Source: Candidatus Paraprochloron terpiosi LD05 | GTDB taxonomy: Bacteria > Cyanobacteriota > Cyanobacteriia > Cyanobacteriales > Prochloraceae | Direction of reading: 5' to 3' | DNA: 64,000 bases | Assembly: GCA_018141785.1 (NCBI GenBank) | Contig: CP073341.1 | Coordinates: 633,251-697,250, forward strand | Shown here: one piece after another, positions 2,954 through 59,700 of the stretch | Layout of the letters: every line of letters starts with the position of its first letter | Numbering within the stretch: position 1 is the first letter of the stretch | Translations under genes and position numbers: made by a program | The notes under the pieces: generated by a model | What the model was told of the DNA's origin: nothing | Seen by the model: the letters and a program-made list of their open reading frames with translations, nothing else | Database searches by the model: none

Positions 2954-5491
2954 ATTAGAGTCGAGGGAGATGTTGCCACCTCGCCCCTCTCCTACGAACT
3001 GTACGTGAGACTTTCACCTCATACAGCTCAGGTGCTGTCTATGCCTTTACGGCGCGCTTCGCGAGTCCGTCTTTAATGCGTTTCCGGTGTACCGTTTGCG
3101 CCTGATGACATTCTCGGTGGAGAGCAACCAGATTTTTACATCTCCAGTTGTTATGGTTACCATCTATGTGGTGCAACTCCACGGCTCCATCTATCTCCAT
3201 GAACTTACGATTGCAATGCGGACATACATTCTTCTGTCGCCTGAGGGCTTCAGCGGTTGGTCCATCATATAATTTGGAATTTCGACCGACCCAATAGGAG
3301 ATATTCCCATCGTAGGGTGAGGCACCACCTTCAACCATCGCGTGGCTATTGACTTTCCAGGGAACTGCTGGGAGAGCTTTCTTAATCTGCTCTGATGTGA
3401 GCGCGCGAGGCGCGCTCCTAAGGGTTTACCCTTAGTTGCCAGACGTCTTGCTTTCTCAGCTTCCTTTTGAGCCATCCTGCGTTTTTCTGCTCGAAGGTTT
3501 GCGCCATAACCATATCCGCAGTGACCATAGGGCGTGTTTACTCATATCGCAGTGCTTGTGATATTGCCTCCAACCTCGGACTTGCGACTCTATCCTTTTC
3601 AGGCGAGCCTTCGTGGTTGTGCCATTTCTCCAAGTGGCCTTTACCTTAGCCTTTATGTCCGCATAATTCTCGGAACTCGGTGTGGATTTGAAGACTCCAC
3701 GGGAATTGACACGAAAGCGCCACCCCAGGAAATCGAACCCGTCCGTAGCTTTACTCACCTTAGTCTTAGTTTCATTGATTTTTAGCCCGGAAGACTCCAG
3801 GAATTTGTCTATATCTTTCCGTAACCGCTGGATGTCAGATTCGGGTTTACAGATAAAGACCGCGTCGTCTGCGTAACGAATGCCCCTTATACCTTCTGAC
3901 CATCTGTAGTACTTTTGACCGGACTTTTTCCCGCTTTTGTGGGTGTATTCTGTCCTGACCTTCTGGTCATTTCCTAGATTCTCGAATCCATCTAGGGCGA
4001 TATTGGCCAGTAGTGGCGAGATAACCCCGCCTTGGGGCGTACCCTTAATACTGGAGGGGTATTCACCACGAACGCCAGCTTTTATTGCTATCTTGAGTCC
4101 CCTTAAGGCTTCGGTTGGTAAGACTACTTTCTTGAGCATGACCTGGTGGTCTATCTCATCGAAACATTTGCTGATGTCTGTTTCCAGTATTAGCTTATTC
4201 TTACCATTTGCCTGGCTGTTTAGATTCTGGGAGATTAGCCTTTGTGCGTCCGCAGTACAGCGTCCGGGTCTGAAGCCGTAGCTTCTTTCTCCGGCAGTCG
4301 CCTCGTAGGCAGGCTCTGCTGCTAACTTAAGCAATGCTTGCCATGCCCGGTCGGCTATCGTTGGAATGCCTAATCCCCTTGTTTTGCCGTTTGGCTTGGG
4401 GATATTTACCCTTCTCAGTTGCTGGTGTTTCCAGTGGTGCCAGTGCTTGTTGAGCCTTTGACACAACACTAGACGCTCTCTGGTAGAAAGCGCTGTTTTG
4501 CCATCAACTCCGGGGGACTTACGCCCTGTGTTTAACTGTGTTACTTGTTTGACGGCCAGTGCTTGGGCAGCACGACTCTGTAATAGGAGCCGTTGTAAAC
4601 GTTTGACCTTGGCTTTTTGACCGTTCTTTTGCGCTTTAAAGATTGCCCGCTGTAATCGAAATACCTGCCGTTGGAATTTCTTCCATGGCAAGTCCTTCCA
4701 GACATCGTCAGCCCTCCGGCCAATCTTCCCCGCCAGCAGGAATACTGCTAGGTGGAGCCTCAAGGCTTTTAGACTGCGGTATTCGATTGGAGTCTGGTTA
4801 GTGATATTCACAGTTTGACCTCATTAGTCGCTCTGATAATTACATTGGGTCTCTTCTCTGTAGAAACCATCGGGCAGTTACGCCCTCTCTTACCCTCGCT
4901 CTTCCGTTAGGCCGTTAATCAAGCGACCCCACCACTCCTGCTCCTGCGCAGCCGCGCCTGAGCAGGCATTGTTGGGATTGGACTCCCCTGTTTCCGTGGA
5001 AGTTAAGCGAGTTTTTACTCGTTCCGAACGAACTATTGTTACGAACCCTTGGGACTCATCCATTGACCTATCACCAACTCAGGAATGTAAGTAGTGTTAC
5101 TTGCCCTTACGAGTCTCTTTCGGTGTCTTTTCTGCTCTCTAGCGGCTTGGCAGTGTTCTTGATTAGGTCTTTTCTTAGATGATTCACGTTAAGTTATCCC
5201 GGTGTTCTTCCTGTTAGCGGCTTTACCATCGAACCGCTCGATAGCTCCGGTTCCGCCCTGCTGCCAGCTTCAGCCTGATGATTAATCTCACTGTGGCCAG
5301 GTAAGGTTTCACGTGATTCCTTCACGGGAGAGACTTTCACTCTCATAGTTCATTCAGTTATCAAGGTTCAGCTGGTCAGGAGTTGTTTCAGCCTGTTTCC
5401 GGGCTTAGATTTCAGCTCCAGTTTGTCTAGAACCCTGCCCTAGCTTCGTTCGGATTACTCCGCGACTTTACTTGCTAGGAACGAGCCGCAC
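2954..5491 (-). mobile_element. Group II intron 1 (family A, IIB-like), intergenic
   Basis: 5' GTGCGGCTCGTT; D5 GAGCTGTATGAGGTGAAAGTCTCACGTACAGTTC; 3' CTCTAAT; the empty site GCCTTCGGT|AGTAACCC is present at 1021-1037. Confidence 0.95.
3039..4811 (-). pseudogene. Intron-encoded RT/maturase/HNH, frameshifted after the RT domain
   Basis: PQGGVISP and YADD in 3456-4811; the X/HNH parts lie in other frames (3191-3475, 3039-3338). Confidence 0.9.
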
Positions 5492-5537
5492 AGTAACCCA
5501 CAAGTTGGCCAAATTAGCAATCTGGAAATTTGTACCT

Positions 5538-6214
5538 ATGAAAAAACAACTGATTATAACTATGGCCATGGCTGCCTCTCTCCTCCATGGAGGCCCTGTT
5601 CATGCTGTTACTAATAATATCATCCAGCCAGATATTGTTGAGACAACCTTCGATCCTTTAATCTCTGTTGAGAATTTCCTAACAGAGGAAACAAATAATA
5701 TAAATAACATTATAAATCAATTGGACAGCCCCAGATGTCTCTTTCCAGGCTTGGATGATAATTTTAATCAGGCGATAAGTTGTTATTTTATAAGTGATGA
5801 AAGTTCTTCTCTCAGCGACGAAATCATAACTTTTACCTTTAATAATGTCGTCACCATCAAAAGCTTCCTGCTTTGGAATGGAGCTATAAATCAAGGCATA
5901 AATCAATTTGAGTTATTCTTAGATAATAACTCAAATTTTAGTGATAATATCATAACTAAACTTAGTAGTAAGACAACTTTTATGGACAACAAATTACATC
6001 ATTGAATATTCCCCTTCAGAGATTTTCTTTCTCCGCCGTTTCAACTCAATATGTTCACCTAAGGATTCTCAGTAATCATGATGATGCTCATAATCATATC
6101 AGTATTACGGAAATAGCCTTTGAAGAAGTACCTTTTGAAATTAGTCCCATACCAGGAATTACTTTCCTCCTGGTAATCGCCACAATCGCACGGTTGCGTC
6201 ATTACTCCCACTAG
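5538..6214 (+). pseudogene. Paralog of the PFE-CTERM secreted protein, frameshifted near 6000
   Basis: Same signal peptide and C-terminal tail as 1076-1775; two overlapping frames. Confidence 0.65.
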
Positions 6215-6222
6215 CTAGAATC

Positions 6223-6603
6223 TTACCATCCGGGCTGAAGGCTAAACTCCAGACAGTACCGGAATGTCCTGCCTAAACCGCCCAACTTAGGCACTTCCTC
6301 AACACAAATCTCTGCTGCGGAAGCTTCTTGACTAAAAGCTCTTTCTCGCAACCGCAACCACTCTTTTAATACTCCCAAACCCCCTACATGCTCCGGTGTT
6401 TCTTGTTGGGTGTAAAACTCCAGCGATCGACTCTCCCGAATAATTTGCTTTTTCTCCTCCATGACTAAGTCGATATCCCGATCATCTAACACTCCGTTAC
6501 TCACGATCGCCTTTGCAAATACTCGTTGTCCTTGGGATGCCGTCAAACCCAAAGCAGATTGTACCAGTTTTTCTTTTCCTAAGGCAGTGAGGTTAAACTT
6601 CAC
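6223..6603 (-). pseudogene. Internal fragment of a Ycf46-like AAA ATPase
   Basis: EEKKQIIRESRSLEFY..VGGLGVLKEWL motif; breaks at the duplication boundary (~6316) before Walker A. Confidence 0.65.
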
Positions 6604-6626
6604 CCCTGGTGTTTTTCCTAACTTGT

Positions 6627-7232
6627 TCAGTGTGGTTTGATGAGGTATTTGTAACGTTTTGGTAGTGGATAGCGAAAGCTTCTGGATCCAAAAAACCTAC
6701 TGCTGGAGTAAAAACCGATAATTAGTGAAACCTTATCTAGAGAAAACAGATAGCGAATTTTTCTTCTAATAAGATGCTGCACATCAATAATTTTAATTTT
6801 GTATAAATTGACATTTGCTTTTCTCAGCAATTTCAGGTCTTCACTCCCTCCAAACAATACCATTTTTGCAATATGATACCTTTTAAATAAAGTGTGAATA
6901 TATTGACATAGCTCATACAAGGATTTATGTGAAAGCTTTTCTCCAACTGCTTTATCAGCTTTACGGATCTTGTAACTTGGATTGAAGTGCTTCTGATATT
7001 CTCCTTTTCCAACATTTGCAACCGTCTCTGATAACCCAATCGTTTTTCCTACCTGATTAATGATGTTTTTTCTTATAACAATGTCAATGTCATAGCAAAG
7101 CTTCTTACTCTCCAGAATAGGTATATCTTTTTCTGAATCAGATATAACTGCACCAATCTCTGTTGGGATAAAGTCTTTCCTGTTAGAACCATAAATTTGC
7201 CCCCATTCCATATCAAAAAATAGAGTCTTCAT
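6627..7232 (-). CDS. Hypothetical protein with DEDD exonuclease-like N-terminus
   Basis: FFDME..IPTEIGAV and GSEDLKLL motifs; low GC. Confidence 0.45.
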   Translation of the reverse strand: MKTLFFDMEWGQIYGSNRKDFIPTEIGAVISDSEKDIPILESKKLCYDIDIVIRKNIINQVGKTIGLSETVANVGKGEYQKHFNPSYKIRKADKAVGEKLSHKSLYELCQYIHTLFKRYHIAKMVLFGGSEDLKLLRKANVNLYKIKIIDVQHLIRRKIRYLFSLDKVSLIIGFYSSSRFFGSRSFRYPLPKRYKYLIKPH

Positions 7233-7686
7233 CTACTTCTAGTTAATCCAAACTGTTCTTCAGAAGCAAAGAATGCCTTTAACTGCTAGCCTAACGGCCT
7301 TGAGGCTAGCGGTGCGACACCATCTTTCGGGTAGTACCGATCGCCCCTGTCTCCCAGAGCATCTGCTACGGTGAATGGTGTGCGATTCGTTGAGCGGGTC
7401 GAAGGAGTATATTGCTATACTCCAACTCCCTGTCGTTAAACACTTAGATTGTGCAGAGGCTACATTTCCCTAGCGGGAGTTTATATGTAATGATGCTTAT
7501 TATTAAGCCACTTTCCCTCCCAACCAATCGCCCCACTTGTACAAATTTCCCCCATTGTAAATCCCAATCACCCCATTTGTCAAGACAATCCCAGATGAGT
7601 TAACATAAATTTACAATATCAAATCGAATGGTAGGGGCACCTTGAGGAAGGCTGCCCTGCCCTATAAGACCCAGGAGGCTCAAAGC

Positions 7687-9540
7687 GTGAGTAAAAATAA
7701 TAAAAAATGGCGCAATGCAGGACTATATGCACTACTAGCAATAGTAGTCATAGCCCTGGGAACCGCCTTTTTAGACGATCAACAGACCCTAAGTCGTCCC
7801 GTATTAAAGTACAGCGAATTCATCAACCAAGTCGAAAATAATCAAATCGATCTGGTCCGCCTCAGCGCTGATCGCACCCAAGCTCAAGTGCCTAACCCGG
7901 AAGGAGGTCAGCCAATACTCGTCAACCTCCCCAACGATCCTCAACTAATTAACATTCTCACCAAAAACGAGGTAGACATTGCCGTTCTCCCCCCCAGTGA
8001 CGATGGCTTCTGGTTCCGCGCCCTGAGCAGCCTGTTCTTACCTATCTTGCTGTTGGTGGGACTGTTCTTCTTGCTGCGTCGGGCTGGGAGCGGTTCTGGT
8101 TCTCAAGCGATGAACTTTGGTAAGTCTAAAGCCAGGGTGCAAATGGAACCCCAAACTCAAGTAACATTTGCCGACGTAGCTGGGATCGAGCAAGCCAAGT
8201 TAGAATTGACGGAAGTAATAGACTTTCTCAAAAACGCCGATCGCTTCACAGCTATTGGAGCGAAGATTCCCCAGGGCGTTCTTTTAGTCGGTCCTCCGGG
8301 AACGGGTAAAACCCTTTTAGCTAAAGCAGTTGCAGGGGAAGCTGGAGTACCTTTCTTCTCCATTTCCGGTTCCGAGTTTGTGGAAATGTTCGTGGGTGTG
8401 GGGGCTTCCCGAGTACGGGATCTGTTCGAGCAAGCTAAAAACAACGCTCCCTGTATCGTCTTTATCGATGAAATCGATGCAGTAGGTCGTCAGCGAGGAG
8501 CAGGTTTAGGAGGAGGTAACGACGAACGGGAGCAAACCCTGAACCAGTTACTCACAGAAATGGACGGTTTTGAAGGCAATATAGGTATCATTATAGTCGC
8601 CGCTACCAACCGTCCCGACGTTCTGGATGCCGCCCTGTTACGTCCCGGTCGTTTCGATCGCCAAGTAGTAGTGGATCGCCCGGACTATGCTGGTCGTCAG
8701 GAAATCCTCCAAGTCCACGCTCGGGGCAAAACCCTCAGTAAAGATGTAGATCTGGACAAAATTGCCCGTCGTACTCCAGGCTTTACCGGTGCAGATCTCT
8801 CCAACCTCTTGAACGAAGCCGCCATTCTGGCAGCCCGTCGCGACCTGACGGAAATATCCATGGATGAGATCAATGATGCCATCGATCGGGTGCTGGCAGG
8901 ACCGGAGAAGAAAAATCGGGTGATGAGCGAGAAGCGCAAGGAATTAGTAGCCTATCACGAAGCGGGTCACGCTTTAGTAGGTGCCCTGATGCCAGACTAT
9001 GACCCAGTGCAGAAAATCAGCATCATTCCTCGGGGTCGCGCCGGGGGTTTGACTTGGTTCACCCCCAGCGAAGACAGAATGGACTCCGGTTTGATGAGCC
9101 GCTCCTATTTACAAAATCAGATGGCGGTAGCATTAGGGGGTCGTATCGCCGAAGAAATCGTCTTCGGGGAAGAAGAAATAACCACTGGGGCTGCTAATGA
9201 CTTGCAGCAAGTAGCCAGAATAGCCCGCCAAATGGTAACTCGTTTCGGTATGAGCGATCGCCTCGGTCCCGTAGCTTTAGGACGGCAAAACGGCAATGTT
9301 TTCCTTGGACGGGATATTGCCTCTGATCGGGATTTCTCCGACGAAACCGCAGCTACTATCGACGAGGAAGTGAATAATTTAGTAGATCAAGCCTATCGTC
9401 GCGCCAAAGATGTGTTAGTGTCCAATCGTTCAGTTCTGAATCACTTGGCAGAAATGCTGGTGGAGAAAGAAACTGTCGATGCAGAGGAGTTGCAAAAGTT
9501 ACTGGCCAATAATGAAGTGAAAATGGCGGCATCTGTCTAA
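7687..9540 (+). CDS. ftsH: ATP-dependent zinc metalloprotease FtsH (FtsH3-type)
   Basis: [16 protein letters not shown] and HEAGH motifs; N-terminus [13 protein letters not shown]. Confidence 0.97.
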
Positions 9541-9611
9541 CTTGCATAGCGGTAGGGAGGCATTGAGGATGCTGTCCCTACTATCCTTCAAGTTATAATC
9601 CTGGAAAACAA

Positions 9612-10079
9612 ATGGCGGCAAGCAGAATTAGGGTGGCAAAAGACAAGGGAGACTTGGTTCAAAGTTTAGTGGAATCTAAGGAAACCACAGGACCTTTTCA
9701 GACCTATGCGGACGTAATTGCATTTGCCGCAGCATTGGGGGCTAAGTATAAAAAGCGTGTCCCTCTCAAAGAAATATCGAAAAAAGAACCAGCACCCATC
9801 GGGTTGGAAATCTTTATTTCCAGGGGCTACGATTTGGCGATTAAATTACTGGCGATCGCCGAGACTAAAGACACGAAAATTATCTCCACTTACGATGCTG
9901 CTGCGGAAGAGGAGAGAATAAAAATCTTTGAAGAGTATGCTAACGGGGGACTGGAGAAACTCCGCCAAGAGTTAAAAGGAGCAGTAGACTATTCCGAGAG
10001 AATCCTCTTAATTCTCAGTCAGGAAAGATTTAAAGAAGAATCTTCAGAAGAAGAATTCGATTTAAGTCGATTTCTTTAA
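9612..10079 (+). CDS. DNA phosphorothioation-associated protein 4 (dnd_assoc_4-like)
   Basis: RIRVAKDK..GPFQTYADVIAFAAALG..IFEEYANGGL resembles the cyanobacterial dnd-associated family (recognised from memory). Confidence 0.7.
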   Translation: MAASRIRVAKDKGDLVQSLVESKETTGPFQTYADVIAFAAALGAKYKKRVPLKEISKKEPAPIGLEIFISRGYDLAIKLLAIAETKDTKIISTYDAAAEEERIKIFEEYANGGLEKLRQELKGAVDYSERILLILSQERFKEESSEEEFDLSRFL

Positions 10080-10092
10080 TTGGGTGTCATTA

Positions 10093-11433: not shown

Positions 11434-11643
11434 ATTTTTACGAAAATAACCTTCTAATAAAGCAAAATTACCACACAACACAGCACAAAGCAATCATACC
11501 ACAAAAAGTTACCCAGGGCAACTCGTGACAATTGCAATGAGCTAAGAGGGTAAAGCTGCATTTGGCTCTATTATAGCACCATTAGAACAACTTTCCTTCT
11601 CTGTGACTCTTTGACTCTGGGTGAAACCCTTCCTAGATTATAC

Positions 11644-12141: not shown

Positions 12142-12217
12142 GGGTAGCTCAGATATATAAAAAGCTCTTATACCCTATACTAGCATAGCGGGCTGAGTGG
12201 TTTTATTATAGGATAAT

Positions 12218-13360: not shown

Positions 13361-13376
13361 TCAACCATGGTACGTG

Positions 13377-13640
13377 TTAAAGAGCGCCAGCACTTGCCAG
13401 TCCTAAAATGGTACCCAGACCGATTATATGACCCAAGCTTGTGGTTGCCAGTAATGCTGGAAAACCCATGCCGCCAAACATTGCTGGCATTGGTAAAGCC
13501 GGTCCTTCGCTTGCGTTTTTAATTGTAGCTTTGCCGAAAGCAATAGCAATGATATTGCAGACAATCATCACCATGGCAACCTTCGGGCTCCATGCTACCG
13601 TGTTAGGAATGGACGCAGCTAATAGTAAAGTCGAGTACAT
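13377..13640 (-). CDS. psaK: Photosystem I subunit PsaK
   Basis: WSPKVAMVMIVCN..LLATTSLGHIIG. Confidence 0.92.
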   Translation of the reverse strand: MYSTLLLAASIPNTVAWSPKVAMVMIVCNIIAIAFGKATIKNASEGPALPMPAMFGGMGFPALLATTSLGHIIGLGTILGLASAGAL

Positions 13641-15110: not shown

Positions 15111-15195
15111 AAATCGTTCAGTCTTGCTCCCAACAACTTTTGTATCTCACAGATTCACCCTATCCCCCTATCTTCCCTTTGGTGTATAAGTAGGC

Positions 15196-28663: not shown

Positions 28664-31600
28664 TCATTCCCTAAAGAACGTCCCATTCACTTGCAATAAT
28701 CGTCCTGTCCTAGAATCTTGGAATCCGGGACTCAGGTGATATAAAGCAAACCCCATTTCTTTGAGTTTATTTAACATCTCCTCAAAGAGCATTTGTCCCT
28801 CATAAAGAGGAACAATAGAGAGTTCTAAGTGAATTCCCTTGATTTTCGAGATAATCTCATTTGCTCCTTTGAGAACTTGCTCCTCATAACCTTGGGTATC
28901 TATCTTGAGCAAAATTCCTGCCATACCATCCATATATTGAGCTGCTGCATCTGAAAGCTTCATCAATTAGAGTCGAGGGAGACGTTACCGCCTCGCCCCT
29001 CTCCTACGAACTGTACATGAGACTTTCACCTCATACAGCTCAGGTGCTTCTATACCTTTACGGCGCGCTTTACGAGTCCGTCTTTAATGCGCTTGCGGTG
29101 TATCGCTTGCGCCTGGTGACATTCCCGATGGAGAGCAACTAAATTCTTACGTTTCCAGTTGTTATGGTTGCCGTCAATGTGGTGCAACTCCACGACACCA
29201 TCCATCTCCATGAACTTACGGTTGCAATGCGGACACTTACCCTTCTGTCGTTTAATGGCTTTGGCGGTTGGCCCACTATATAGATTGGAATTCCGGCCAA
29301 CCCAATAGGGAATATTCCCATCGTAGGGTGAGGCATCACCTTTGACCATTACGTGGCCATTGACTTTCCAGGGAATTGCAGGGAAAGCTTTCTTAATCTG
29401 CTCTGATGTGAGCTGGCGTTTAGCCGCTCCTAAGGGTTTACCCTTGGTAGCCAGACGTCTTGCTTTCTCTGCTTCCTTAATTGCCATCCTGCGTTTTTCT
29501 GCTCTTAGTTTGCGCCATAACCATATCCGCAGTGACCATAGGGCGTGTTTATTCATATCGCAGCTTTTATGGTATTGCCTCCAACCTCGGACTTGTGACT
29601 CAATCCTTTTTAGGCGAGCTTCCGTGGTTGCACCATTTCTCCAAGTGGCTTTAACCTTGGCCTTTATGTCCGCATAATTCTCGGAGCTCGGTGTGGACTT
29701 AAAGACTCCACGGGAATTGACACGAAAGCGCCACCCCAGGAAATCGAATCCTTCCGTAGCTTTACTCACCTTAGTCTTGGTTTCGTTAATTCGTAGCCCT
29801 CTGGACTTTAGAAATTCGTCGATATCTTCCCGTAGCTTCTTGGTGTCGGCTCCGGGTTTACAGATAAAGACCGCATCATCTGCGTAACGTATACCCCTTA
29901 TGAGAGTGCCATCTCGGCGTCTCTTTTTCCATTGGTCAGACCCTAGGTTCTCGAATCCATCTAGGGCGATATTGGCCAGTAGGGGTGAGATAACCCCGCC
30001 TTGGGGGGTACCCTTCATACTGGAGGGATATTCACCACGAACGCCTGCTTTTACAGCTCTCTTTAATCCCTTTAAGGCTTCGATTGGTAGGACTACTCCA
30101 TCGAGCATGACCTGGTGGTCAATTTCGTCAAAGCACTTACTGATGTCTGTTTCCAGTATCAGCTTGTCCTTGCCGTTACACGTCTTCTTAAGTTGGTCAA
30201 AGATGAGCTTTTGTGCGTCCGCAGTACAGCGACCGGGTCGGAAGCCGTAGCTTCTTTCTCCGGCAGTTGCCTCGTAAGCTGGCTCGGCTGCTAACTTTAG
30301 TAGTGCCTGCCACGCCCTGTCAGCTATTGTTGGGATGCCTAATCCACGAGTTTTGCCGTTAGGCTTGGGGATATTTACCCTTCTCAGTTGTTGGTGTTTC
30401 CAGTGGTACCAGTGCTTATTCAGCCTTTGGCATAACACTAGACGCTCATTGGTAGAAAGCGCTGTTTTTCCATCAACTCCGGGGGACTTACGCCCTGTGT
30501 TCAGCTGTGTTACTTGTTTGACGGCCAGAGCTTGAGCTGCACGACTCTGTAATAGGAGCCGTTGTAAACGTTTGACTTTGGCTTTGTGCTTGTCCTTTTG
30601 CGCTTTGAAGATACACCGCTGTAACCGAAATACCTGACCTCGGAATCTCTTCCATGGCACGTCTTTCCAGACATCGTCAGCCCTCCGGCCAATCTTCCCC
30701 GCCAGCAGGAATGCTGCTAAGTGGAGCCTCAAGGCTTTTAGACTGCGGTATTCGATTGAAGTCGGGTTAGTGATATTCACAATTTGACCTCGTTAGTCGC
30801 TCTGATAATTACGTTGGGTATCTTCTCTGTAGAAACCATCGGGCAGTTACGCCCTCTCTTACCCTCGCTTTTCCGATAGGCCGTTAATCAGGCGACCCCA
30901 CCACTCCTGCTCCTGCGCACACGGCAGTCAGGCATTGTTGGGTTTGGAACCCCCTGTTTCCGTGGAAGTTGAGCGAGTTTTTACTCGTTCCGAATGAACT
31001 ATTGTTACGAACCCTTGGGAACTCATCCATTGACCTATCACCAACTCAGGAATGTAAGTGCTTTGTAGTTGCCTTACGAGTTTCTTTCGGTGTTTCTTCT
31101 GTCGTAGGTAACGGTCTTCCGACAGTGTCGAAACTTAGGTCTTTTCTCAGATGATTCACGTTAAGTTATCCCGGTGTTCTCCCTGTTAGCGGAAGTGTCT
31201 CTGCCTAACCGTTTGGCCGCACTTTACCGCCCTGCTGCCAGCTTCAGCCTGATGATTAATCTCACTGTGGCCAGGTAAGGATTCACATGATTCCTTCATG
31301 GGAGAGGCTTGGTTGCACAATTTCTGACTGTGTCCTCACTCTCATAGTTCATTCAGTTGTCAAGGTTCGGTAATCCTGGATAAGAATCGTTTATCCGTTT
31401 TCAGCCCCTTTCGTTGGCTTAGATTATCGGAGACGGTGTCCCGGAACCTTGCTCCTGTTTATGTTTGGCTTACGCCGCGACCTTCACAGGAAACGAGCCG
31501 CACCCTTAACTGTTTCTGAATCAACATAGGTTGAATTCGGTTCAGCATCTATATGGGCCTGTAACATGGGTAAAATAGAACTACTGTGGGAATTCTTGGC

Positions 31601-32157: not shown

Positions 32158-34738
32158 ATTAGAGTCGAGGGGGATGTTACCACCCCGCCCCTCTCCTACG
32201 AACTGTACGTGAGACTTTCACCTCATACAGCTCAGGTGCTTCTATACCTTTACGGCGCGCTTTACGAGTCCGTCTTTAATGCGCTTGCGGTGTATCGCTT
32301 GCGCCTGGTGACATTCCCGATGGAGAGCAACTAAATTCTTACGTTTCCAGTTGTTATGGTTGCCGTCAATGTGGTGCAACTCCACGGCACCATCCATCTC
32401 CATGAACGGTCGGTTGCAATGCTGACACTTACCCTTCTGTCGCTTAATGGCGTCAGCGGTTGGGCCACTGTATAATTTGGAGTTCCGACCAACCCAATAG
32501 GAAACATTCCCATCGTAGGGTGAGGCATTACCTTTGACCATTACGTGACGGTTCACTTCCCCAGAAACTGATGGGAACGCCTTATCCACCTGCATTTTCG
32601 TTAGCTGGCGTTTTGCTGCTCCCTTCTTCATCACCTTGCCTTTGATGGCTTGGCGACGAGCTTTTTCGGCTTCCTTTTTGGCCATTTTGCGTTTGTCTGC
32701 TCTTAGTTTGTGCCATAACCAATGGCTCAGTGACCATAGGGCGTGTTTCGACATATCGCAGTGTTTATGGTAATTCCTCCAGCCTCGGACTTGTGACTCT
32801 ATCCTTTTCAGGCGAGCATCCGTGGTTGTTCCGTTTTTCCAAGTGGCTTTAACCTTGGCCTTTATGTCTGCATAATTCTCCCAACTCGGTGTGGATTTGA
32901 AGACTCCACGGGAATTGACACGGAAGCGCCACCCCAGAAAGTCGAATCCATCCGTAGCTCTACTCACCTTAGTCTTAGCTTCGTTAATTTGTAGCCCTCT
33001 GGACTTTAAGAATTCGTCGATATCTTCCCGTAGTTTCCTGGTATCGGCTCCGGGTTTACAGATAAAGACCGCGTCATCTGCGTAACGTATACCCCTTATT
33101 AACGGTCTTCGCCGTTCTCTTTTCCATTGGTCTGTCCCTAGGTTCTCGAATCCATCTAGGGCAATATTGGCCAGTAATGGTGATATGACACCACCTTGGG
33201 GAGTACCCTTTGTACTGGAGGGGTATTCACCACGAACGCCTGCTTTTACAGCTTTCTTTAACCCTTTTAAAGCTTCGATTGGTAGGACTACTCCATCGAG
33301 CATGACCTTGTGGTCAATTTCGTCAAAGCATTTACTGATATCTGTTTCCAGAATCAGCTTGTCTTTACCATTTGCATTGCTTTTGAGATTGCTAAAGATG
33401 AGCTTTTGTGCGTCCGCAGTACAGCGACCGGGTCGGAAGCCGTAGCTTCTTTCTCCGGCAGTTGCCTCGTAGGCAGGCTCGGCTGCTAACTTGAGCAGCG
33501 CTTGCCACGCCCGGTCGGCTATTGTGGGGATGCCTAATCCACGAGTTTTGCCGTTTGGCTTCGGGATGTTTACCCTTCTCAGTTGTTGGTGTTTCCAGTG
33601 GTACCAGTGCTTGTTCAGCTTTTGGCAGAGTGTCAGACGCTCCTTGGTAGAAAGCGCGGTTTTGCCATCAACTCCGGGGGACTTACGCCCTGTGTTTAAC
33701 TGTGTTACTTGTTTGACGGCCAGTGCTTGGGCTGCACGACTCCGAAGTAGGAGCCGTTGTAAACGTTTGACCTTAGCTTTTGATTGTTCTTTTTGCGCTT
33801 TGAAGATACCCCGCTGTAACCGAAATACTTGCCGCCGGAATTGCTTCCATGGCAGGTCTTTCCAGACGTCGTCAGCCTTCCGACCTATCCTCCCCACCAT
33901 TAGCAGGACTGCTAAGTGGAGTCTCAAGGCTTTCAGGCTGCGGTATTCGGTTGAAGTCTGGTTAGTGATGTTCACAGTTTTGACCTCGTCAGTCACTCTG
34001 ATAGTTACATTGGGTCTCTTCTCTGTAGAAACCATCGGGCAGTTACGCCCTCTCTTACCCTCACCCTTCCGATAGGCCGTTAATCAGGCGACCCCACCAC
34101 TCCTGCTCCTGCGCACACGGCAGTCAGGCATTGTTGGGTTTGGAACCCCCTGTTTCCGTGGAAGTTGAGCGAGTTTTTACTCGTTGGGAACGAACTATTG
34201 TTACGAACCCTTGGGACTCATCCATTGACCTATCACCAACTCAGGAATGTAAGTGCTTGAAATTTGCCTTACGAGTTTCTTTCGGTGTTTCTTCTGTCGT
34301 AGGTAACGGTCTTCCGACAGTGTCGGATGTTAGGTCAATTCTTCAGATGATTCACGTTAAGTTATCCCGGTGTTCTCCCTGTTAGCGGAAGTATCTCTGC
34401 CTAACCGTTTGGCCGCACTTTACCGCCCTGCTGCCAGCTTCAGCCTGATGATTAATCTCACTGTGGCCAGATAAGGATTCACGTGATTCCCCTGCTCCTG
34501 CGCAGCCGCGCCTGAGCAGGCGGGAGAGACTTGGTTGCACGATTTCTAACCGTGGCCTCACTCTCATAGTTCATTCAGTTGTCCAGGTTCGGTAACCCCC
34601 GGCATCGCGGATGGCGAGGGAACGTTTTTCCGTTTTCAGCCCCTTTCAGGACTTATATGCTCGGAGACGCTGTCCCTAAAACCCTGCTCCTGCTTATGTT
34701 TGGCTTACGCCGCGACTTTCACAGGAAACGAGCCGCAC
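32158..34738 (-). mobile_element. Group II intron 3 (family A), in the ankyrin gene
   Basis: GTGCG...CTCTAAT ends; nearly identical to the intron at 51223-53777. Confidence 0.95.
32242..34035 (-). CDS. Intron-encoded RT/maturase/HNH endonuclease
   Basis: YADD and HNH motifs. Confidence 0.95.
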   Translation of the reverse strand: MVSTEKRPNVTIRVTDEVKTVNITNQTSTEYRSLKALRLHLAVLLMVGRIGRKADDVWKDLPWKQFRRQVFRLQRGIFKAQKEQSKAKVKRLQRLLLRSRAAQALAVKQVTQLNTGRKSPGVDGKTALSTKERLTLCQKLNKHWYHWKHQQLRRVNIPKPNGKTRGLGIPTIADRAWQALLKLAAEPAYEATAGERSYGFRPGRCTADAQKLIFSNLKSNANGKDKLILETDISKCFDEIDHKVMLDGVVLPIEALKGLKKAVKAGVRGEYPSSTKGTPQGGVISPLLANIALDGFENLGTDQWKRERRRPLIRGIRYADDAVFICKPGADTRKLREDIDEFLKSRGLQINEAKTKVSRATDGFDFLGWRFRVNSRGVFKSTPSWENYADIKAKVKATWKNGTTTDARLKRIESQVRGWRNYHKHCDMSKHALWSLSHWLWHKLRADKRKMAKKEAEKARRQAIKGKVMKKGAAKRQLTKMQVDKAFPSVSGEVNRHVMVKGNASPYDGNVSYWVGRNSKLYSGPTADAIKRQKGKCQHCNRPFMEMDGAVELHHIDGNHNNWKRKNLVALHRECHQAQAIHRKRIKDGLVKRAVKV

Positions 34739-46871: not shown

Positions 46872-46875
46872 AAAT

Positions 46876-50568
<3,693 letters not shown>

Positions 50569-50708
50569 TGGTTTTCCTTAATTGGCTTGAGTTATTTATT
50601 TACTTCAATCTGATGGATAGAGGGCGGAGCAAGAAAAGATACGCTAATCTCATTATAGCAATTTCTGCCCCTCCGCGCCTATGTGCCTCTGCGTGAAACA
50701 TTATCCCA

Positions 50709-53700
50709 TTATAACACCTTTGGAAGCCCTACCTCTTTCGGTTCCACAAAATTACCATCAAAACCGATGGCCCTATCTTCGATAGTTCTCGCCTTAGCCA
50801 AATCTTTGAGCAAATTACCACGTTCCATATCATCTGATGTCCCGGCGACGAGATAGACCATTAATTTGGCGGCTAAATCCCGTCTCGAAGTCAGCACCCG
50901 CTTCTTATTAGGGTCGTAAAGCACCCCATACCACAGGGATTTGGGTTCGGACACGGACGCAAAACCTCCCCCTAAATCGTAGGTGCGTAATTTATCGAAA
51001 ATATCTGCTAATAACCTCTTTTTCTTAAATACCAAGATTCCCAAAGCTTGAGCTAAAGCAATTTGTCCTATGGGGCGGAAGAGAATATTTGCTTCTCCAC
51101 CAGGCTTCTCGTGACTGAAGCGACGCAGCATGGGGGTTTGGGTTCCTTGTTCCAACCGCTGGTAACTGGGCAGACTCCCTAAATGGTCCCATAACTCCTT
51201 AAAATCCGCCACTCCCTCTTCTATTAGAGTCGAGGGGGATGTTACCACCCCGCCCCTCTCCTACGAACTGTACGTGAGACTTTCACCTCATACAGCTCAG
51301 GTGCTTCTATACCTTTACGGCGCGCTTTACGAGTCCGTCTTTAATGCGCTTGCGGTGTATCGCTTGCGCCTGGTGACATTCCCGATGGAGAGCAACTAAA
51401 TTCTTACGTTTCCAGTTGTTATGGTTGCCGTCAATGTGGTGCAACTCCACGGCACCATCCATCTCCATGAACGGTCGGTTGCAATGCTGACACTTACCCT
51501 TCTGTCGCTTAATGGCGTCAGCGGTTGGGCCACTGTATAATTTGGAGTTCCGACCAACCCAATAGGAAACATTCCCATCGTAGGGTGAGGCATTACCTTT
51601 GACCATTACGTGACGGTTCACTTCCCCAGAAACTGATGGGAACGCCTTATCCACCTGCATTTTCGTTAGCTGGCGTTTTGCTGCTCCCTTCTTCATCACC
51701 TTGCCTTTGATGGCTTGGCGACGAGCTTTTTCGGCTTCCTTTTTGGCCATTTTGCGTTTGTCTGCTCTTAGTTTGTGCCATAACCAATGGCTCAGTGACC
51801 ATAGGGCGTGTTTCGACATATCGCAGTGTTTATGGTAATTCCTCCAGCCTCGGACTTGTGACTCTATCCTTTTCAGGCGAGCATCCGTGGTTGTTCCGTT
51901 TTTCCAAGTGGCTTTAACCTTGGCCTTTATGTCTGCATAATTCTCCCAACTCGGTGTGGATTTGAAGACTCCACGGGAATTGACACGGAAGCGCCACCCC
52001 AGAAAGTCGAATCCATCCGTAGCTCTACTCACCTTAGTCTTAGCTTCGTTAATTTGTAGCCCTCTGGACTTTAAGAATTCGTCGATATCTTCCCGTAGTT
52101 TCCTGGTATCGGCTCCGGGTTTACAGATAAAGACCGCGTCATCTGCGTAACGTATACCCCTTATTAACGGTCTTCGCCGTTCTCTTTTCCATTGGTCTGT
52201 CCCTAGGTTCTCGAATCCATCTAGGGCAATATTGGCCAGTAATGGTGATATGACACCACCTTGGGGAGTACCCTTTGTACTGGAGGGGTATTCACCACGA
52301 ACGCCTGCTTTTACAGCTTTCTTTAACCCTTTTAAAGCTTCGATTGGTAGGACTACTCCATCGAGCATGACCTTGTGGTCAATTTCGTCAAAGCATTTAC
52401 TGATATCTGTTTCCAGAATCAGCTTGTCTTTACCATTTGCATTGCTTTTGAGATTGCTAAAGATGAGCTTTTGTGCGTCCGCAGTACAGCGTCCGGGTCT
52501 GAAGCCGTAGCTTCTTTCTCCGGCAGTTGCCTCGTAGGCAGGCTCGGCTGCTAACTTAAGCAACGCTTGCCATGCCCTGTCGGCTATTGTCGGGATGCCT
52601 AATCCCCGTGTTTTGCCATTCGGCTTGGGGATATTTACCCTTCTCAGTTGTTGGTGTTTCCAGTGGTACCAGTGCTTGTTCAGCTTTTGGCAGAGTGTCA
52701 GACGCTCCTTGGTGGAGAGTGCTGTTTTACCGTCAACTCCAGGGGACTTACGCCCTGTGTTCAGCTGTGTTACTTGTTTGACGGCCAGAGCTTGGGCTGC
52801 ACGGCTTTGTAATAGGAGCCGTTGTAAACGTTTGACCTTGGCTTTTGATTGTTCTTTTTGCGCTTTGAAGATACCCCGCTGTAACCGAAATACTTGCCGC
52901 CGGAATTGCTTCCATGGCAGGTCTTTCCAGACGTCGTCAGCCTTCCGACCTATCCTCCCCACCATTAGCAGGACTGCTAAGTGGAGTCTCAAGGCTTTCA
53001 GGCTGCGGTATTCGGTTGAAGTCTGGTTAGTGATGTTCACAGTTTTGACCTCGTCAGTCACTCTGATAGTTACATTGGGTCTCTTCTCTGTAGAAACCAT
53101 CGGGCAGTTACGCCCTCTCTTACCCTCACCCTTCCGATAGGCCGTTAATCAGGCGACCCCACCACTCCTGCTCCTGCGCACACGGCAGTCAGGCATTGTT
53201 GGGTTTGGAACCCCCTGTTTCCGTGGAAGTTGAGCGAGTTTTTACTCGTTCCGAACGAACTATTGTTACGAACCCTTGGGACTCATCCATTGACCTATCA
53301 CCAACTCAGGAATGTAAGTGCTTGAAATTTGCCTTACGAGTTTCTTTCGGTGTTTCTTCTGTCGTAGGTAACGGTCTTCCGACAGTGTCGGATGTTAGGT
53401 CAATTCTTCAGATGATTCACGTTAAGTTATCCCGGTGTTCTCCCTGTTAGCGGAAGTATCTCTGCCTAACCGTTTGGCCGCACTTTACCGCCCTGCTGCC
53501 AGCTTCAGCCTGATGATTAATCTCACTGTGGCCAGATAAGGATTCACGTGATTCCTTCACGGGAGAGACTTGGTTGCACGATTTCTAACCGTGGCCTCAC
53601 TCTCATAGTTCATTCAGTTGTCCAGGTTCGGTAACCCCCGGCATCGCGGATGGCGAGGGAACGTTTTTCCGTTTTCAGCCCCTTTCAGGACTTATATGCT

Positions 53701-56700
53701 CGGAGACGCTGTCCCTAAAACCCTGCTCCTGCTTATGTTTGGCTTACGCCGCGACTTTCACAGGAAACGAGCCGCACATTTCATCATCCTCTGGGCGCAT
53801 GGGAATCAAACCCCTATCCTGGGATTTCCACGTGCAGAATGGGAATTCTAAATAGCGCTCACACATATCTTGGAGCGCCTGAAGAGTAGTCAGGACGGTA
53901 GATTTAGCGGCTACAGTGGCGCTATCGAAATTGACTCGATCCTCCCGTCCCTCCTTTTTCTTCAATAGAGGATGGGTGACGGCAATAGTACGGGCGACGA
54001 TGGCAAAACCATTATCTTCGTTCAGAGAAGCTAACTGTCCTTTGCTCAACCGCACTACTGTTAAATTGACGTGGACGAAGATGGAACGGACTCGGCGCCT
54101 TGCTTCTTCCCTAGTTTCCCCTGGAGCCACGGCGGGAATAAACTCAATGCCGATTTTTTCCTTGGCTAAATTTTGCAGATAACCTGATTGGATGTTGAAT
54201 CCTTCCTCCAGTTTTTCCATGGGAATGGGGGATCCTATGGTCTTCTTGCTTTTATTATATTTGGGCAACATGCCTGTTTTTAGCAGTATTAGAGTCGAGG
54301 GAGATGTTGCCACCTCGCCCCTCTCCTACGAACTGTACGTGAGACTTTCACCTCATACAGCTCAGATGCTTCTATGCCTTTATGGCGCGCTTGTCGAGTC
54401 CGTCCTTGATGCGCTTACTATGCACTTCTTGGTGACATTCCCGATGGAGAGCAACCAGATTCAAGCGAAACCAGTTGTTATGGTTGCCGTCAATGTGGTG
54501 CAACTCCACGACACCATCCATCTCCATGAACTTACGGTTGCAATGCGGACACTTACCCTTCTGTCGTTTAATGGCTTTGGCGGTTGGCCCACTATATAGA
54601 TTGGAATTCCGGCCAACCCAATAGGGAATATTCCCATCGTAGGGTGAGGCATCACCTTTGACCATTACGTGGCCATTGACTTTCCAGGGAATTGCAGGGA
54701 AAGCTTTCTTAATCTGCTCTGATGTGAGCTGGCGTTTAGCCGCTCCTAAGGGTTTACCCTTGGTAGCCAGACGTCTTGCTTTCTCTGCTTCCTTAATTGC
54801 CATCCTGCGTTTTTCTGCTCTTAGTTTGCGCCATAACCATATCCGCAGTGACCATAGGGCGTGTTTATTCATATCGCAGCTTTTATGGTATTGCCTCCAA
54901 CCTCGGACTTGTGACTCAATCCTTTTTAGGCGAGCTTCCGTGGTTGCACCATTTCTCCAAGTGGCTTTAACCTTGGCCTTTATGTCCGCATAATTCTCGG
55001 AGCTCGGTGTGGACTTAAAGACTCCACGGGAATTGACACGAAAGCGCCACCCCAGGAAATCGAATCCTTCCGTAGCTTTACTCACCTTAGTCTTGGTTTC
55101 GTTAATTCGTAGCCCTCTGGACTTTAGAAATTCGTCGATATCTTCCCGTAGCTTCTTGGTGTCGGCTCCGGGTTTACAGATAAAGACCGCATCATCTGCG
55201 TAACGTATACCCCTTATGAGAGTGCCATCTCGGCGTCTCTTTTTCCATTGGTCAGACCCTAGGTTCTCGAATCCATCTAGGGCGATATTGGCCAGTAGGG
55301 GTGAGATAACCCCGCCTTGGGGGGTACCCTTCATACTGGAGGGATATTCACCACGAACGCCTGCTTTTACAGCTCTCTTTAATCCCTTTAAGGCTTCGAT
55401 TGGTAGGACTACTCCATCGAGCATGACCTGGTGGTCAATTTCGTCAAAGCACTTACTGATGTCTGTTTCCAGTATCAGCTTGTCCTTGCCGTTACACGTC
55501 TTCTTAAGTTGGTCAAAGATGAGCTTTTGTGCGTCCGCAGTACAGCGACCGGGTCGGAAGCCGTAGCTTCTTTCTCCGGCAGTTGCCTCGTAAGCTGGCT
55601 CGGCTGCTAACTTTAGTAGTGCCTGCCACGCCCTGTCAGCTATTGTTGGGATGCCTAATCCACGAGTTTTGCCGTTAGGCTTGGGGATATTTACCCTTCT
55701 CAGTTGTTGGTGTTTCCAGTGGTACCAGTGCTTATTCAGCCTTTGGCATAACACTAGACGCTCATTGGTAGAAAGCGCTGTTTTTCCATCAACTCCGGGG
55801 GACTTACGCCCTGTGTTCAGCTGTGTTACTTGTTTGACGGCCAGAGCTTGAGCTGCACGACTCTGTAATAGGAGCCGTTGTAAACGTTTGACTTTGGCTT
55901 TGTGCTTGTCCTTTTGCGCTTTGAAGATACACCGCTGTAACCGAAATACCTGACCTCGGAATCTCTTCCATGGCACGTCTTTCCAGACATCGTCAGCCCT
56001 CCGGCCAATCTTCCCCGCCAGCAGGAATGCTGCTAAGTGGAGCCTCAAGGCTTTTAGACTGCGGTATTCGATTGAAGTCGGGTTAGTGATATTCACAATT
56101 TGACCTCGTTAGTCGCTCTGATAATTACGTTGGGTATCTTCTCTGTAGAAACCATCGGGCAGTTACGCCCTCTCTTACCCTCGCTTTTCCGATAGGCCGT
56201 TAATCAGGCGACCCCACCACTCCTGCTCCTGCGCACACGGCAGTCAGGCATTGTTGGGTTTGGAACCCCCTGTTTCCGTGGAAGTTGAGCGAGTTTTTAC
56301 TCGTTCCGAATGAACTATTGTTACGAACCCTTGGGAACTCATCCATTGACCTATCACCAACTCAGGAATGTAAGTGCTGATGGACTGGCCTTACGAGTTT
56401 CTTTCGGTGTCTCTTCTGTCGTCTGTAACGGTCTTCCGGCAGTGTCAGGTTTTAGGTCTTTTCGTCGATGATTCACATTAAGTTATCCCGGTGTTCTCCC
56501 TGTTAGCGGAAGTATCTCTGCCTAACCGTTGGCCGTACTTTACCGCCCTGTTGCCAGCTTCCGCCTGGTGATTAACCTCACGGTGGCCAGGTAAGGATTC
56601 ACGTGATTCCTTCACGGGAGAGGCTTGGTTGCACGATTTCTGACCGTGACCTCACTCTCATAGTTCATTCAGTTGTCAAGGTTCGGTAATCCTAGTTAGG

Positions 56701-59700
56701 AATCGTTTGTCCGTTTTCCGCCCCTTTCGGTGGCTTAGATTATCGGAGACGTTGTCCCGGAAACCCTGCTCCTGCTTATGTTTGGCTTACGCCGCGACCT
56801 TCACAGGAAACGAGCCGCACTCCATCAAACCTTGAATCCCCATGAGGCGATGCTGACCGTCTAGAGCGAAAATGGAGAATTTTTCATTAGAGTCGAGGGA
56901 GACGTTGCCGCCTCGCCCCTCTCCTACGAACTGTACGTGAGACTTTCACCTCATACAGCTCAGGTGCTTCTATGTCTTTACGACGCGCGAACGGAGTCCA
57001 TCCTTAATACGCTTACGATGCATCGCTTGCGCCTGGTGGCATTCCCGATGGAGAGCAACTAAATTCTTACGTTTCCAGTTGTTATGGTTACCATCTATGT
57101 GGTGCAATTCCACAGCACCATCCATCTCCATGAACAATCGATTGCAATGCTGACATTTGCCCTTCTGTCGCTTAATGGCATCAGCGGTTGGCCCACTATA
57201 TAGTTTGGAATTCCGGCCAACCCAATAGGAAATATTCCCATCGTAGGGTGAGGCATCACCTTTGACCATTACGTGGCCATTGACTTTCCAGGGAATTGCA
57301 GGGAAAGCTTTCTTAATCTGCTCTGATGTGAGCTGGCGTTTAGCCGCTCCTAAGGGTTTACCCTTGGTAGCCAGACGTCTTGCTTTCTCTGCTTCCTTAA
57401 TTGCCATCCTGCGTTTTTCAGCCCTCAGCTTACGCCAAACCCATTTATTGAGTGACCATAGCGAGTGCTTGTTCATGTCGCAGTTTGAGTGATATTGCCT
57501 CCAGCCTCGGACTTGTGACTCAATCCTTTTCAGGCGAGCTTCCGTGGTTGCACCATTTCTCCAAGTTGCTTTAACCTTGGCCTTTATGTCTGCATAATTC
57601 TCCCAACTCGGTGTGGATTTAAAGACTCCACGGGAATTGACACGGAAGCGCCACCCCAAAAAGTCAAATCCTTCCGTGGTTTTACTCACCTTAGTCTTAG
57701 CTTCGTTGATTCTTAGCCCTCTGGACTTTAAGAATTCGTCGATATCCTTCCTTAGCCTTTTGGTGTCGGCTTCGGGTTTACAGATAAAGACCGCGTCATC
57801 CGCGTAACGAATACCCCTTATGAGAGTGCCGTCCCGACGGCTCCTTTTCCATTGGTCTGACCCTAGGTTCTCGAATCCATCTAGGGCGATATTAGCCAGT
57901 AGTGGCGAGATGACCCCGCCTTGGGGTGTGCCCTTTATACTGGAGGGATATTCACCGCGAACGCCTGCTTTTACAGCCCACTTCAGACCCCTGATAGCCT
58001 CTTTTGGTAAGACCACTCCTTTGAGAATGACCTGGTGGTCGATTTCATCGAAGCATCTGCTGATGTCTGTTTCTAAAACCAGCTTGTTCTTACCGTTTGT
58101 CTGGCTGTTTAGATTCTGGAAGATTAGCTTTTGTGCGTCCGCAGTACAGCGACCGGGTCGGAAGCCGTAGCTTCTTTCTCCGGCAGTTGCCTCGTAGGCA
58201 GGCTCGGCTGCTAACTTGAGCAGCGCTTGCCACGCCCGGTCGGCTATTGTGGGGATGCCTAATCCACGAGTTTTGCCGTTTGGCTTCGGGATGTTTACCC
58301 TTCTCAGTTGTTGGTGTTTCCAGTGGTGCCAGTGCTTGTTGAGCCTTTGACACAGCACCAGACGCTCTCTGGTAGAAAGCGCGGTTTTGCCATCAACTCC
58401 GGGGGACTTACGCCCTGTGTTTAACTGTGTTACTTGTTTGACGGCCAGTGCTTGGGCTGCACGACTCCGAAGTAGGAGCCGTTGTAAACGTTTGACCTTA
58501 GCTTTTGATTGTTCTTTTTGCGCTTTGAAGATTCCCCGCTGTAACCGAAATACGTGCCGCCGGAATTGCTTCCATGGCAGGTCTTTCCAGACATCGTCAG
58601 CCCTCCGACCTATCTTCCCCGCCAGCAGGAATGCTGCTAGGTGGAGTCTTAAGGCTTTCAGACTGCGGTATTCGATTGGAGTCTGGTTAGTGATATTCAC
58701 AGTTTGACCTCATTAGTCGCTCTGATAATTACATTGGGTCTCTTCTCTGTAGAAACCATCGGGCAGTTACGCCCTCTCTTACCCTCGCCCTTCCGTTAGG
58801 TCGTTAATCAGGCGACCCCACCACTCCTGCTCCTGCGCAGCCGCGCCTGAGCAGGCATTGTTGGGTTTGGACTCCCCTGTTTCCGTGGAAGTTGAGCGAG
58901 TTTTTACTCGTTCCAAATGAACTATTATTTTGAACCCTTGGGACTCACCCGTTGACCCATCACCAACTCAGGAATGCAAGTGCTGTTTCTTGGCCTTGCG
59001 AGTTTCTTTCGGTGTCTTTTCTGCTCTCTAGCGGCTTGGCAGTGTTCTAGATTAGGTCTTTTTGTAGATGATTCACGTTAAGTTATCCCGGTGTTCTCCC
59101 TGTTAGCGGCTTTACCATCGAACCGCTCGATAGCTCCGGTTCCGCCCTGCTGCCAGCTTCAGCCTGATGATTAATCTCACTGTGGCCAGGTAAGGATTCA
59201 CGTGATTCCTTCACGGGAGGGACTTTCACCCTCATAGTTCATTCAGTTATCAAGGTTCAGCTGGTCAGGAACTGTTTCAGCCTGTTACCGGGCTTAGATT
59301 GCAGCTCCAGTTTGTCTAGAACCCTGCCCTAGCTTCGTTCGCCCGGCATCCTCGATGGCGGGCGCGACTTTACTTGCTAGGAACGAGCCGCACCGAAACA
59401 TCTAGTAGTCCCACAGTTTCGTTTTGGTCTAGAGGGTCAAAATTGGCAGCCAATTTTGAGCAGCGTCCCTCCTCATCCCACTCCAGAGCCTGGGGATCAT
59501 CTACCCACTTGGGGCTGATCACTGCTAGGATGGCGGGAAACTTATGGAATTTGCGGGCGGCGAGATACTGGGCTAGAACTGCTTGCCGGGACCAATCTAG
59601 GGGACGCTGTAGCATTTCTTCCACCGTTTCCCCATCTTTGATGAGGTTGTTGGTTCCTGAGTCTAATTTTTGCCGAAACAGGGGCAACTGGGAAGCAAAA

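Follow-up and report, generated by a model that had tools for sequence, protein, structure and literature searches.

A 30-nucleotide hairpin repeat in group II introns and other loci of a cyanobacterial genus

We analyzed a 64,000-nucleotide (nt) stretch of Candidatus Paraprochloron terpiosi LD05 (contig CP073341.1, positions 633,251 to 697,250; hereafter the window), in which an earlier note had described a 30-nt hairpin, CCTGCTCCTGCGCAGCCGCGCCTGAGCAGG, inside introns. This element has been copied to many unrelated sites, i.e., it is mobile, and it is not specific to introns. The proposal of a minimal mobile element was thus borne out, by nine insertion sites in the genome under study (G000), about 20 clusters of flanking sequence in another genome of the same genus (G003), and pairs of filled and empty sites without target duplication. 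The observation is real and beyond chance. With a probability of roughly 0.55, we regard the 30-mer as the core of a small dispersed hairpin repeat of a cyanobacterial genus that carries no gene, is inserted by DNA-level templating, and was amplified in the G000 introns mainly passively. New here are the genus-wide distribution, the sites outside introns in sister genomes, a junction rule, flips of the hairpin center, and the lineage-specific arrival of introns that bear the element.

Copies and intron sites in G000

Positions are those of the window unless marked as genome positions. The 30-mer occurs exactly on the plus strand at 4937-4966, 34491-34520, and 58826-58855, and its exact reverse complement lies at 49955-49984. 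A search of the window with up to three mismatches gave no match beyond these four, and 100 shuffles gave an expectation of 0.00; the two exact copies and the reverse complement first reported at 4937, 58826, and 49955 were all re-found where none was expected by shuffling. The element has 7-bp terminal inverted repeats (CCTGCTC/GAGCAGG) and folds into a hairpin in which a 7-bp and a 4-bp stem are separated by a 2x2 internal loop and capped by a tetraloop, with RNA folding energies of -19.1 kcal/mol for the plus-strand form and -21.2 kcal/mol for the other. As had been claimed, there is no target duplication: comparison of the copies in the window and the rest of G000 revealed no direct repeat beside any of them. 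We refer to the reading in intron sense, CCTGCTCAGG...GAGCAGG, as form R and to its complement as form F.

All four window copies lie within group II introns on the minus strand. Those at 4937, 49955, and 58826 occupy a homologous intron site, A, with flanks ..ccccaccact / cattgttggg... The first is in form R in the sense of its intron, 2954-5491(-); the second, whose central 16 bases are inverted, is in intron 47953-50556(-), and the third is in intron 56886-59393(-). The 34491 copy is at a different site, B, of intron 32158-34738(-), where it stands in place of the TGAA (intron sense) of empty introns. On the plus strand, empty site B reads GATTCC-TTCA-CGGGAG at 53550-53565, and the others are at 5315, 31289, 50341, 56605, and 59204; these six window introns bear out the contrast drawn earlier between the 34491 copy and matching introns. 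Also correct was the report of introns that carry only the left half of the element. A 27-nt variant, detected by sequence match, shares its first 14 bases with the element and occupies site A on the plus strand at 30906-30932, 34102-34128, 53167-53193, and 56222-56248. A third site, C, lies near the intron 5′ end; in its native, empty state it holds the first 11 element bases (56765-56780, and also at 34683 and 53722, plus strand).

The earlier note had advised a genome-wide search, and this yielded 35 exact copies in the 3.84-Mb single contig of G000, 47 with up to two mismatches, and 49 with up to five. All 49 are within group II introns: 47 in a family that we call family 1, one beside or in domain 5 of a second-family intron, and one, a half-copy, in a third-family intron that starts GTGCGAC. 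Scoring of 150 among 495 candidates showed that G000 has at least 150 matches to group II intron domain 5/6. Family 1, in 146 blast chains, accounts for 6.3% of the genome (243,675 bases). Half-element 14-mers follow the same pattern, with 62 of 63 in family-1 chains.

Using an alignment of 71 near-full-length family-1 introns, we assigned the 49 copies to nine distinct sites, in both orientations (seven family-1 sites and the two singles). Site A holds 14 copies, of which 13 are in form R and one, the 49955 copy, is in form F and is the only one with an inverted center. Nine copies in form R are at site A′, a few bases from A in the same stem-loop, and 11, also in form R, are at site B. Site C, about 50 nt from the intron 5′ end, has six copies. 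Site Fs, at the start of the open reading frame (ORF) region, has two copies in form F; sites E (three copies, form R) and D (two copies, form F) are within the ORF. The six copies at site C all belong to a T/A variant, in which a double change converts an inner-stem C-G pair to T-A. This variant has seven copies in G000 and 11-12 in G003; as all of them may share one ancestor, they count as a single compensatory event. Element subfamilies, including the T/A variant, are each found at several sites, and a CTTGCTC... variant is confined to site A′.

Junctions, targets, and sister genomes

A comparison of filled with empty sites, also suggested at the outset, gave clean pairs. About 20 such comparisons could be made, either within the intron family or between G003 and G000, the latter at the cbiG-cobJ gene, tnpB genes, introns, and a hairpin repeat. 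None shows a target duplication. The net gain per insertion is +25 to +30 bases, and zero to six target bases, mostly three to six, are replaced. For form R, the right junction abuts GG(T), and in most cases this motif is already present in the empty site. Flanks were retrieved for 51 of the 52 G003 copies: 36 of the 51 have GGT immediately after R (22 of 35 when only distinct flank pairs are counted; background 1.6% per position), and 42 have G immediately before it. Of 47 G000 copies, 22 have GG after R.

Some targets resemble one end of the element: its last 10 bases are found at site C, CCTGC at site D, and AGCAGG at site E. The suggestion that the element targets stem-loops holds for part of the sites. 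Loop apices are the target at site A′, whose predicted apex loses CCGA to the element; in a GAAA-type loop of an intron that has no ORF; and in an 8-bp hairpin with a 13-nt loop. The sites in the intron ORF, tnpB, and cbiG have no evident hairpin. Site B is also an exception. Its TTCA had been taken for a 4-nt loop, but the flanking hexamers GATTCC and CGGGAG are not complementary, and the replaced TGAA includes 3 nt of a small domain I stem with two covarying pairs among the intron copies (GTGA/TCAC, ATGA/TCAT, GCGA/TCGC). We considered whether empty sites could be excision footprints, as CTGTA is present at two unrelated empty sites, and set this aside; empty site B is ancestral and covarying.

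We compared 41 genomes: G000, three others of the same genus (G001, G002, and G003), and 37 from other genera of the order. G003 contains 52 copies and G002 contains seven matches at six places; the element is absent from G001 and from the 37 genomes of other genera. G001 has 21 matches to group II intron domain 5, yet no copy of the element. When 185,579 species genomes were scanned for exact matches, the element turned up in two records only, a Prochloron sp. metagenome-assembled genome (MAG) chromosome and a Candidatus Paraprochloron terpiosi MAG; exact matches being limited to these two, there was no occurrence in Nostocaceae.

The G003 copies are distributed differently from those of G000. 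Although G003 possesses introns related to family 1 (76-79% identity), none of the 51 copies lies within 150 nt of a blastn match to a family-1 intron, and all three family-1-like introns examined in G003 and G002 lack an insert at A, B, and C. Part of the roughly 20 flank clusters map to other group II intron families, where seven copies interrupt the 3′ strand of domain 5 and two more lie immediately upstream of it. Insertion into domain 5 should inactivate the ribozyme, though the G003 form exists in seven copies (L033, L034, L039, L049, L053, L054, and L057). A G000 copy at genome position 765320 is in the 5′ strand of domain 5.

Other G003 hosts are unrelated to introns. They include tnpB genes (OrfB_IS605 and Cas12f1-like TNB domains), in which three open frames of 403-461 amino acids (aa) cross the element and one frame is truncated; the 13-nt loop of the 8-bp hairpin CCCCACCC/GGGTGGGG, with insertions on both strands; an FtsX-like frame; and the upstream sequences of two genes, one for gamma-glutamyltranspeptidase and one IMPDH-like. 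In a cbiG-cobJ-type gene, an exact 30-base in-frame insertion adds LPAQARQRRS-like residues between CbiG_N and CbiG_mid, giving a protein of 646 aa compared to 636 aa in G000. The G002 copies have several of these sites in common with G003.

Routes of insertion and amplification

Within our favored reading, insertion would be templated at the DNA level. A replication or repair polymerase would switch to a donor copy, the switch being primed by a GG(T)/ACC microhomology of 2-3 bases; it would copy the stable hairpin and rejoin the target a few bases further on. Switching of strands inside the hairpin could give rise to inverted centers and perfect palindromes, and both are classic outcomes of strand switching in quasi-palindromes. 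In G000, the element would have entered group II introns about nine times, and its rise to 49 copies would be mainly passive, as introns bearing the element retrohomed and about 100 intron copies recombined or underwent gene conversion with one another. Its survival in selfish DNA may reflect the low cost of such insertions to the host.

Flips were found in two genomes. The 16-base center of the 49955 copy is inverted between intact 7-bp arms, as in no other of the 14 site-A copies of G000, and at G003 locus L031 the center is flipped relative to the flank signature. A G002 copy (C276:3222-3251), inside an intron related to family 1, is a perfect-palindrome version with a folding energy of -28.0 kcal/mol. 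We also inspected the assembled contigs of four of 21 public runs over 49600-50900. Those inside the repeated intron are only about 80-120 nt long, and the longer pieces (455-725 nt; X1-X3) cover unique exon only. Two runs show an "opposite strands" joint at 49952/49987, which the 13 paralogues of usual orientation would be expected to produce and which is no evidence either way on the inversion.

Evidence for passive amplification comes from the host introns. The minus strand of the window has eight matches to group II intron domain 5/6 (RF00029, 59-61 bits). Seven of the eight introns belong to family 1, with 5′ ends GTGCGGCT at 5491, 31503, 34738, 50556, 53777, 56820, and 59393, and the ORFs of the window's family-1 introns encode RVT_N, RVT_1, and GIIM domains. 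Among the hosts of the element, intron 2954-5491(-) has a broken reverse transcriptase (RT) ORF of 451 aa, intron 32158-34738(-) carries the 27-nt variant at 34102 in addition to the 34491 copy, and intron 56886-59393(-) encodes a protein of 576 aa with all three domains. Four family-1 introns in tandem split one GmrSD_N/DUF262-type gene (46876-59888, minus strand), whose DGQHR motif is in a 61-nt exon, 56821-56885. The orthologous G003 gene has an intron at none of the four positions, and the G002 gene has none at the two positions covered by its contig. Since intron 47953-50556(-) is missing from the G003 and G002 orthologues and intron 56886-59393(-) from the G003 orthologue, both arrived after the split. 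They carry a site-A haplotype common to 12 other copies, and the simplest reading of this haplotype together with the late arrival is retrohoming of introns that already carried the element. In the same gene, an exon stretch of about 35 nt (~50668-50705, around TTCACGCAGAGGCACATAGGCGCGGAGG) has dozens of matches in G002 and G003 at 84-94% identity and only four loose matches in G000; it may be another dispersed repeat.

Many G000 intron copies are decayed, with a median longest frame of 481 aa versus about 575-620 aa for intact ones. Among the 21 copies with frames of at least 540 aa, an exact element occupies one of the non-coding sites A, A′, B, and C in seven, and another two have either a 5-mismatch A′ copy or the 27-nt site-A variant. 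Insertions in the ORF add 25 or 29 bases, and their host copies have shortened frames.

The element is also more uniform than its surroundings. As the relation between identity and distance from the element is confounded by indels, we counted polymorphic positions. None of the 30 element positions is polymorphic, compared to 17 of 60 flank positions at site A (13 copies), where mean flank identity is 89%, and 24 of 60 at site B (11 copies), a count inflated in the left flank by an indel region. On a tree of whole introns, filled states at A and B are dispersed, a pattern that recombination or conversion would produce; as these introns are probably mosaics, the tree leaves repeated insertion and recombination indistinguishable. 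The uniform element could be due to recombination or short-patch conversion between intron copies, to selection on the hairpin, or to both.

Several points weigh against templated insertion with passive amplification. The insertion mechanism is inferred from junctions only. With at least 35 distinct sites in G003, 1-3 bases of microhomology would guide insertion only weakly, and the near-constant length replaced (3-6 nt) hints that an enzyme measures it out. A fixed ACC/GGT flank without duplication would also fit a rule like that of IS200/IS605 (insertion 3′ of a short motif), and the genome has three intact genes for IS200-type TnpA. Introns hold every one of the 49 G000 copies, even though family 1 occupies only 6.3% of the genome, so some tie to intron biology is not dismissible. 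Selection on the hairpin, instead of recent copying, could be why the element varies so little, and the inverted copy at 49955 is seen in the assembly alone. A bolder account, which we consider speculative and rather unlikely, is a "hairpin graft," in which a guiding or catalyzing activity would swap a 3-6-base segment 5′ of GG(T) for the hairpin, on either strand and without duplication. Such a rule is not known for mobile DNA. In G000, the graft would be coupled to the single-stranded RNA or cDNA of intron retromobility, and for that reason all 49 copies would be intronic and identical.

A known class of enzyme could also have moved the hairpin. On this account, which we hold to be possible if improbable, a Y1 HUH enzyme (IS200/IS605 TnpA or a relative of the REP-associated tyrosine transposases, RAYTs) mobilized the hairpin in trans as single-stranded DNA and inserted it 3′ of ACC on the strand reading CCTGCTCCTG..., much as IS608 inserts 3′ of TTAC. 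The precise ends, the lack of duplication, the conserved 3-base flank (GGT at 36 of 51 G003 copies), and the spread of each subfamily over several sites would follow, and G000 has three full-length PF01797 genes with DHVH and YINSQ/YIKSQ-type tyrosine motifs; cyanobacteria are rich in Y1 genes, according to the part of PMC6006769 available to us. The junctions nevertheless speak against it, as target bases are replaced at most sites and the empty cbiG site shows GGA, not GGT. We know of no HUH transposition that replaces target bases. Moreover, the closest copy is at least 34.9 kb from every intact Y1 gene, no larger unit ends in the element, all 49 G000 copies are intron-internal, and the Y1 proteins resemble ordinary IS200-type TnpA encoded beside tnpB, not RAYTs. 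One IS200/IS605 unit, near genome position 3,334,000, is wedged between intron copies.

The RNA route put forward in the earlier note, in which the group II intron RT switches templates during cDNA synthesis and the element accumulates in intron RNA loops, now appears doubtful. The confinement of 49 of 49 G000 copies to group II introns speaks for it, as do the same form in intron sense at seven of nine sites and the identity of same-site copies within introns whose flanks are 84-100% alike. The T/A variant contains an 8-mer, GTGCGGCT, equal to the intron 5′ end, which could be chance. Template switching by group II intron RTs is reported in the accessible part of PMC8363836. In G003, however, none of 51 copies is in family 1, and the copies in tnpB, cbiG-cobJ, an FtsX-like gene, and intergenic hairpins are outside introns altogether. 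Orientation relative to host transcripts is mixed: sites D and Fs are opposite in the intron, and the tnpB copy at L030 is opposite to the cbiG copy at L026. Insertions in domain 5 would kill the ribozyme, and G001, with its 21 domain 5 matches, is free of the element. Still less credible, and in our estimate very improbable, is a hairpin that never moved, i.e., a native structural part of the intron multiplied by intron copying and shuffled by recombination. Site A does have one flank haplotype (AACAATG..A), unlike that of empty copies, which fits a single origin there, and native site C already contains 10-11 element bases; but the identical 30-mer is at nine non-homologous G000 sites and in unrelated G003 and G002 genes, related introns of G003 and G002 lack it at A, B, and C, and the site B insertion removes part of a covarying stem. 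Birth of the element at site C or A, to which the half-matches and the shared 8-mer had pointed, was rejected because related G003 and G002 introns have no half-matches and the element is widespread outside introns in those genomes.

Comparison with other small repeats

Further small repeats and variants share the family-1 introns. A second mini-hairpin, E2, is present in the window as CCCGCCATCGAGGATGCCGGG at 49742-49762 (plus strand) and again at 59342-59362 (minus strand). Genome-wide, E2 (CCCGCCATCGNGGATGCCGGG) has 122 matches with up to three mismatches, palindromic forms being counted on both strands. Family-1 chains contain 81 of these, at no fewer than nine intron sites, with loops replaced; some other matches are not intronic, among them one in a terminator-like hairpin (genome position 2951191), and at some places E2 overwrites half of the 30-nt element. 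A variant at an additional position, site G, consists of the first 22 element bases followed by CTCCGGG and replaces CTTAT about 20 nt downstream of site B (genome positions 77247, 698173, 1295269, 2600559, 2876593, and 3498127). In four other introns, a deletion form joins site B to the site G variant across a short direct repeat. Many family-1 introns have about 25 extra bases (..cacggtcagaaatcgtgcaaccaag..) where others have a short loop, GGGTGAAAGTCCC (34491-34700 region; alignment columns 545-575), an apparent further loop expansion.

How repeats too small to encode anything get copied has been a question since the small dispersed repeats (SDRs) of Nostoc, the Rickettsia palindromic elements (RPEs), and the GC clusters of yeast mitochondria. 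This genus offers a clean natural data set: one 30-mer with subfamilies, dozens of filled and empty pairs, a junction signature, flips, and a perfected palindrome. These features yield predictions that distinguish polymerase template switching, HUH-type transposition of single-stranded DNA, and RT routes. The insertions also illustrate that a small repeat can reshape ribozymes, here a covarying domain I stem, domain 5, and the intron ORF, and can add 10 residues to a housekeeping enzyme. Our literature search found no description of the 30-nt element, though one may exist in journals beyond those covered. By a term search, the Paraprochloron genome paper (PMC9298193) mentions 50 RT genes and contains neither "intron" nor "palindrom."

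We compared the element with several established classes. Like miniature inverted-repeat transposable elements, it has terminal inverted repeats, of 7 bp, but it has neither a target duplication nor a larger element with the same ends. For a mini-element derived from IS200/IS605, the signs are mixed: the ACC/GGT flank is frequent and there is no duplication, but 3-6 target bases are replaced at most sites. Repetitive extragenic palindromes (REPs) and REPINs, which are associated with RAYTs, are likewise short imperfect palindromes in tens of copies (PMC3116915 and PMC6006769, as far as their accessible text goes), and our element also resembles them in its possible handling as a single-stranded DNA hairpin and in the presence of Y1 genes in the genome. 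In contrast, no RAYT gene is flanked by the element, the PF01797 genes being IS200-type and beside tnpB; the copies are not extragenic, lying inside introns, ORFs, and tnpB; they are singlets, not inverted doublets; and the flank is GGT/ACC, not of the GTAG type.

Two other systems share some of its behavior. RPEs, of about 100-150 bp, reside in frame inside protein genes and also in RNA genes, without destroying them. The element is similarly a palindrome within open frames, as in the 10-residue cbiG-cobJ insert and the tnpB frames of G003; unlike RPEs, it is 30 nt long and most of its copies are in selfish DNA. The yeast mitochondrial GC clusters (GC42 and others) have a putative AG target-site duplication, and involvement of an intron endonuclease or RT has been discussed for them, according to the available part of PMC4478555. 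From that same partial account, they and the element are both GC-rich hairpins in an AT-richer genome, some of them intronic, with quick turnover, merged or shuffled units, and an unsettled mechanism; the element differs in having no duplication, in replacing a few bases, and in residing on a bacterial chromosome rather than in an organelle.

The best comparison remains the one drawn in the earlier note, with the SDRs of Nostoc, which are likewise short, gene-less, dispersed, and apparently mobile without duplication. SDR1-8 of Nostoc punctiforme and relatives, reportedly described by Elhai and colleagues in 2008 (Genome Res 18:1484), are said to be 21-27 nt long, to lack target-site duplications, and to lie often within other repeats or hairpins. 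No SDR-like repeat had been found outside Nostocaceae, according to the accessible part of PMC5861425. Our element differs in its length (30 nt, or 33 with the GGT flank), in its lineage, and in its confinement to group II introns in G000, and the likeness drawn here is one of description. In other respects the two are close: both are cyanobacterial hairpins of tens of bases that encode no gene, are highly uniform over many sites, nest in other repeats (here introns, insertion sequence genes, and a hairpin repeat), and are apparently mobile with no known enzyme.

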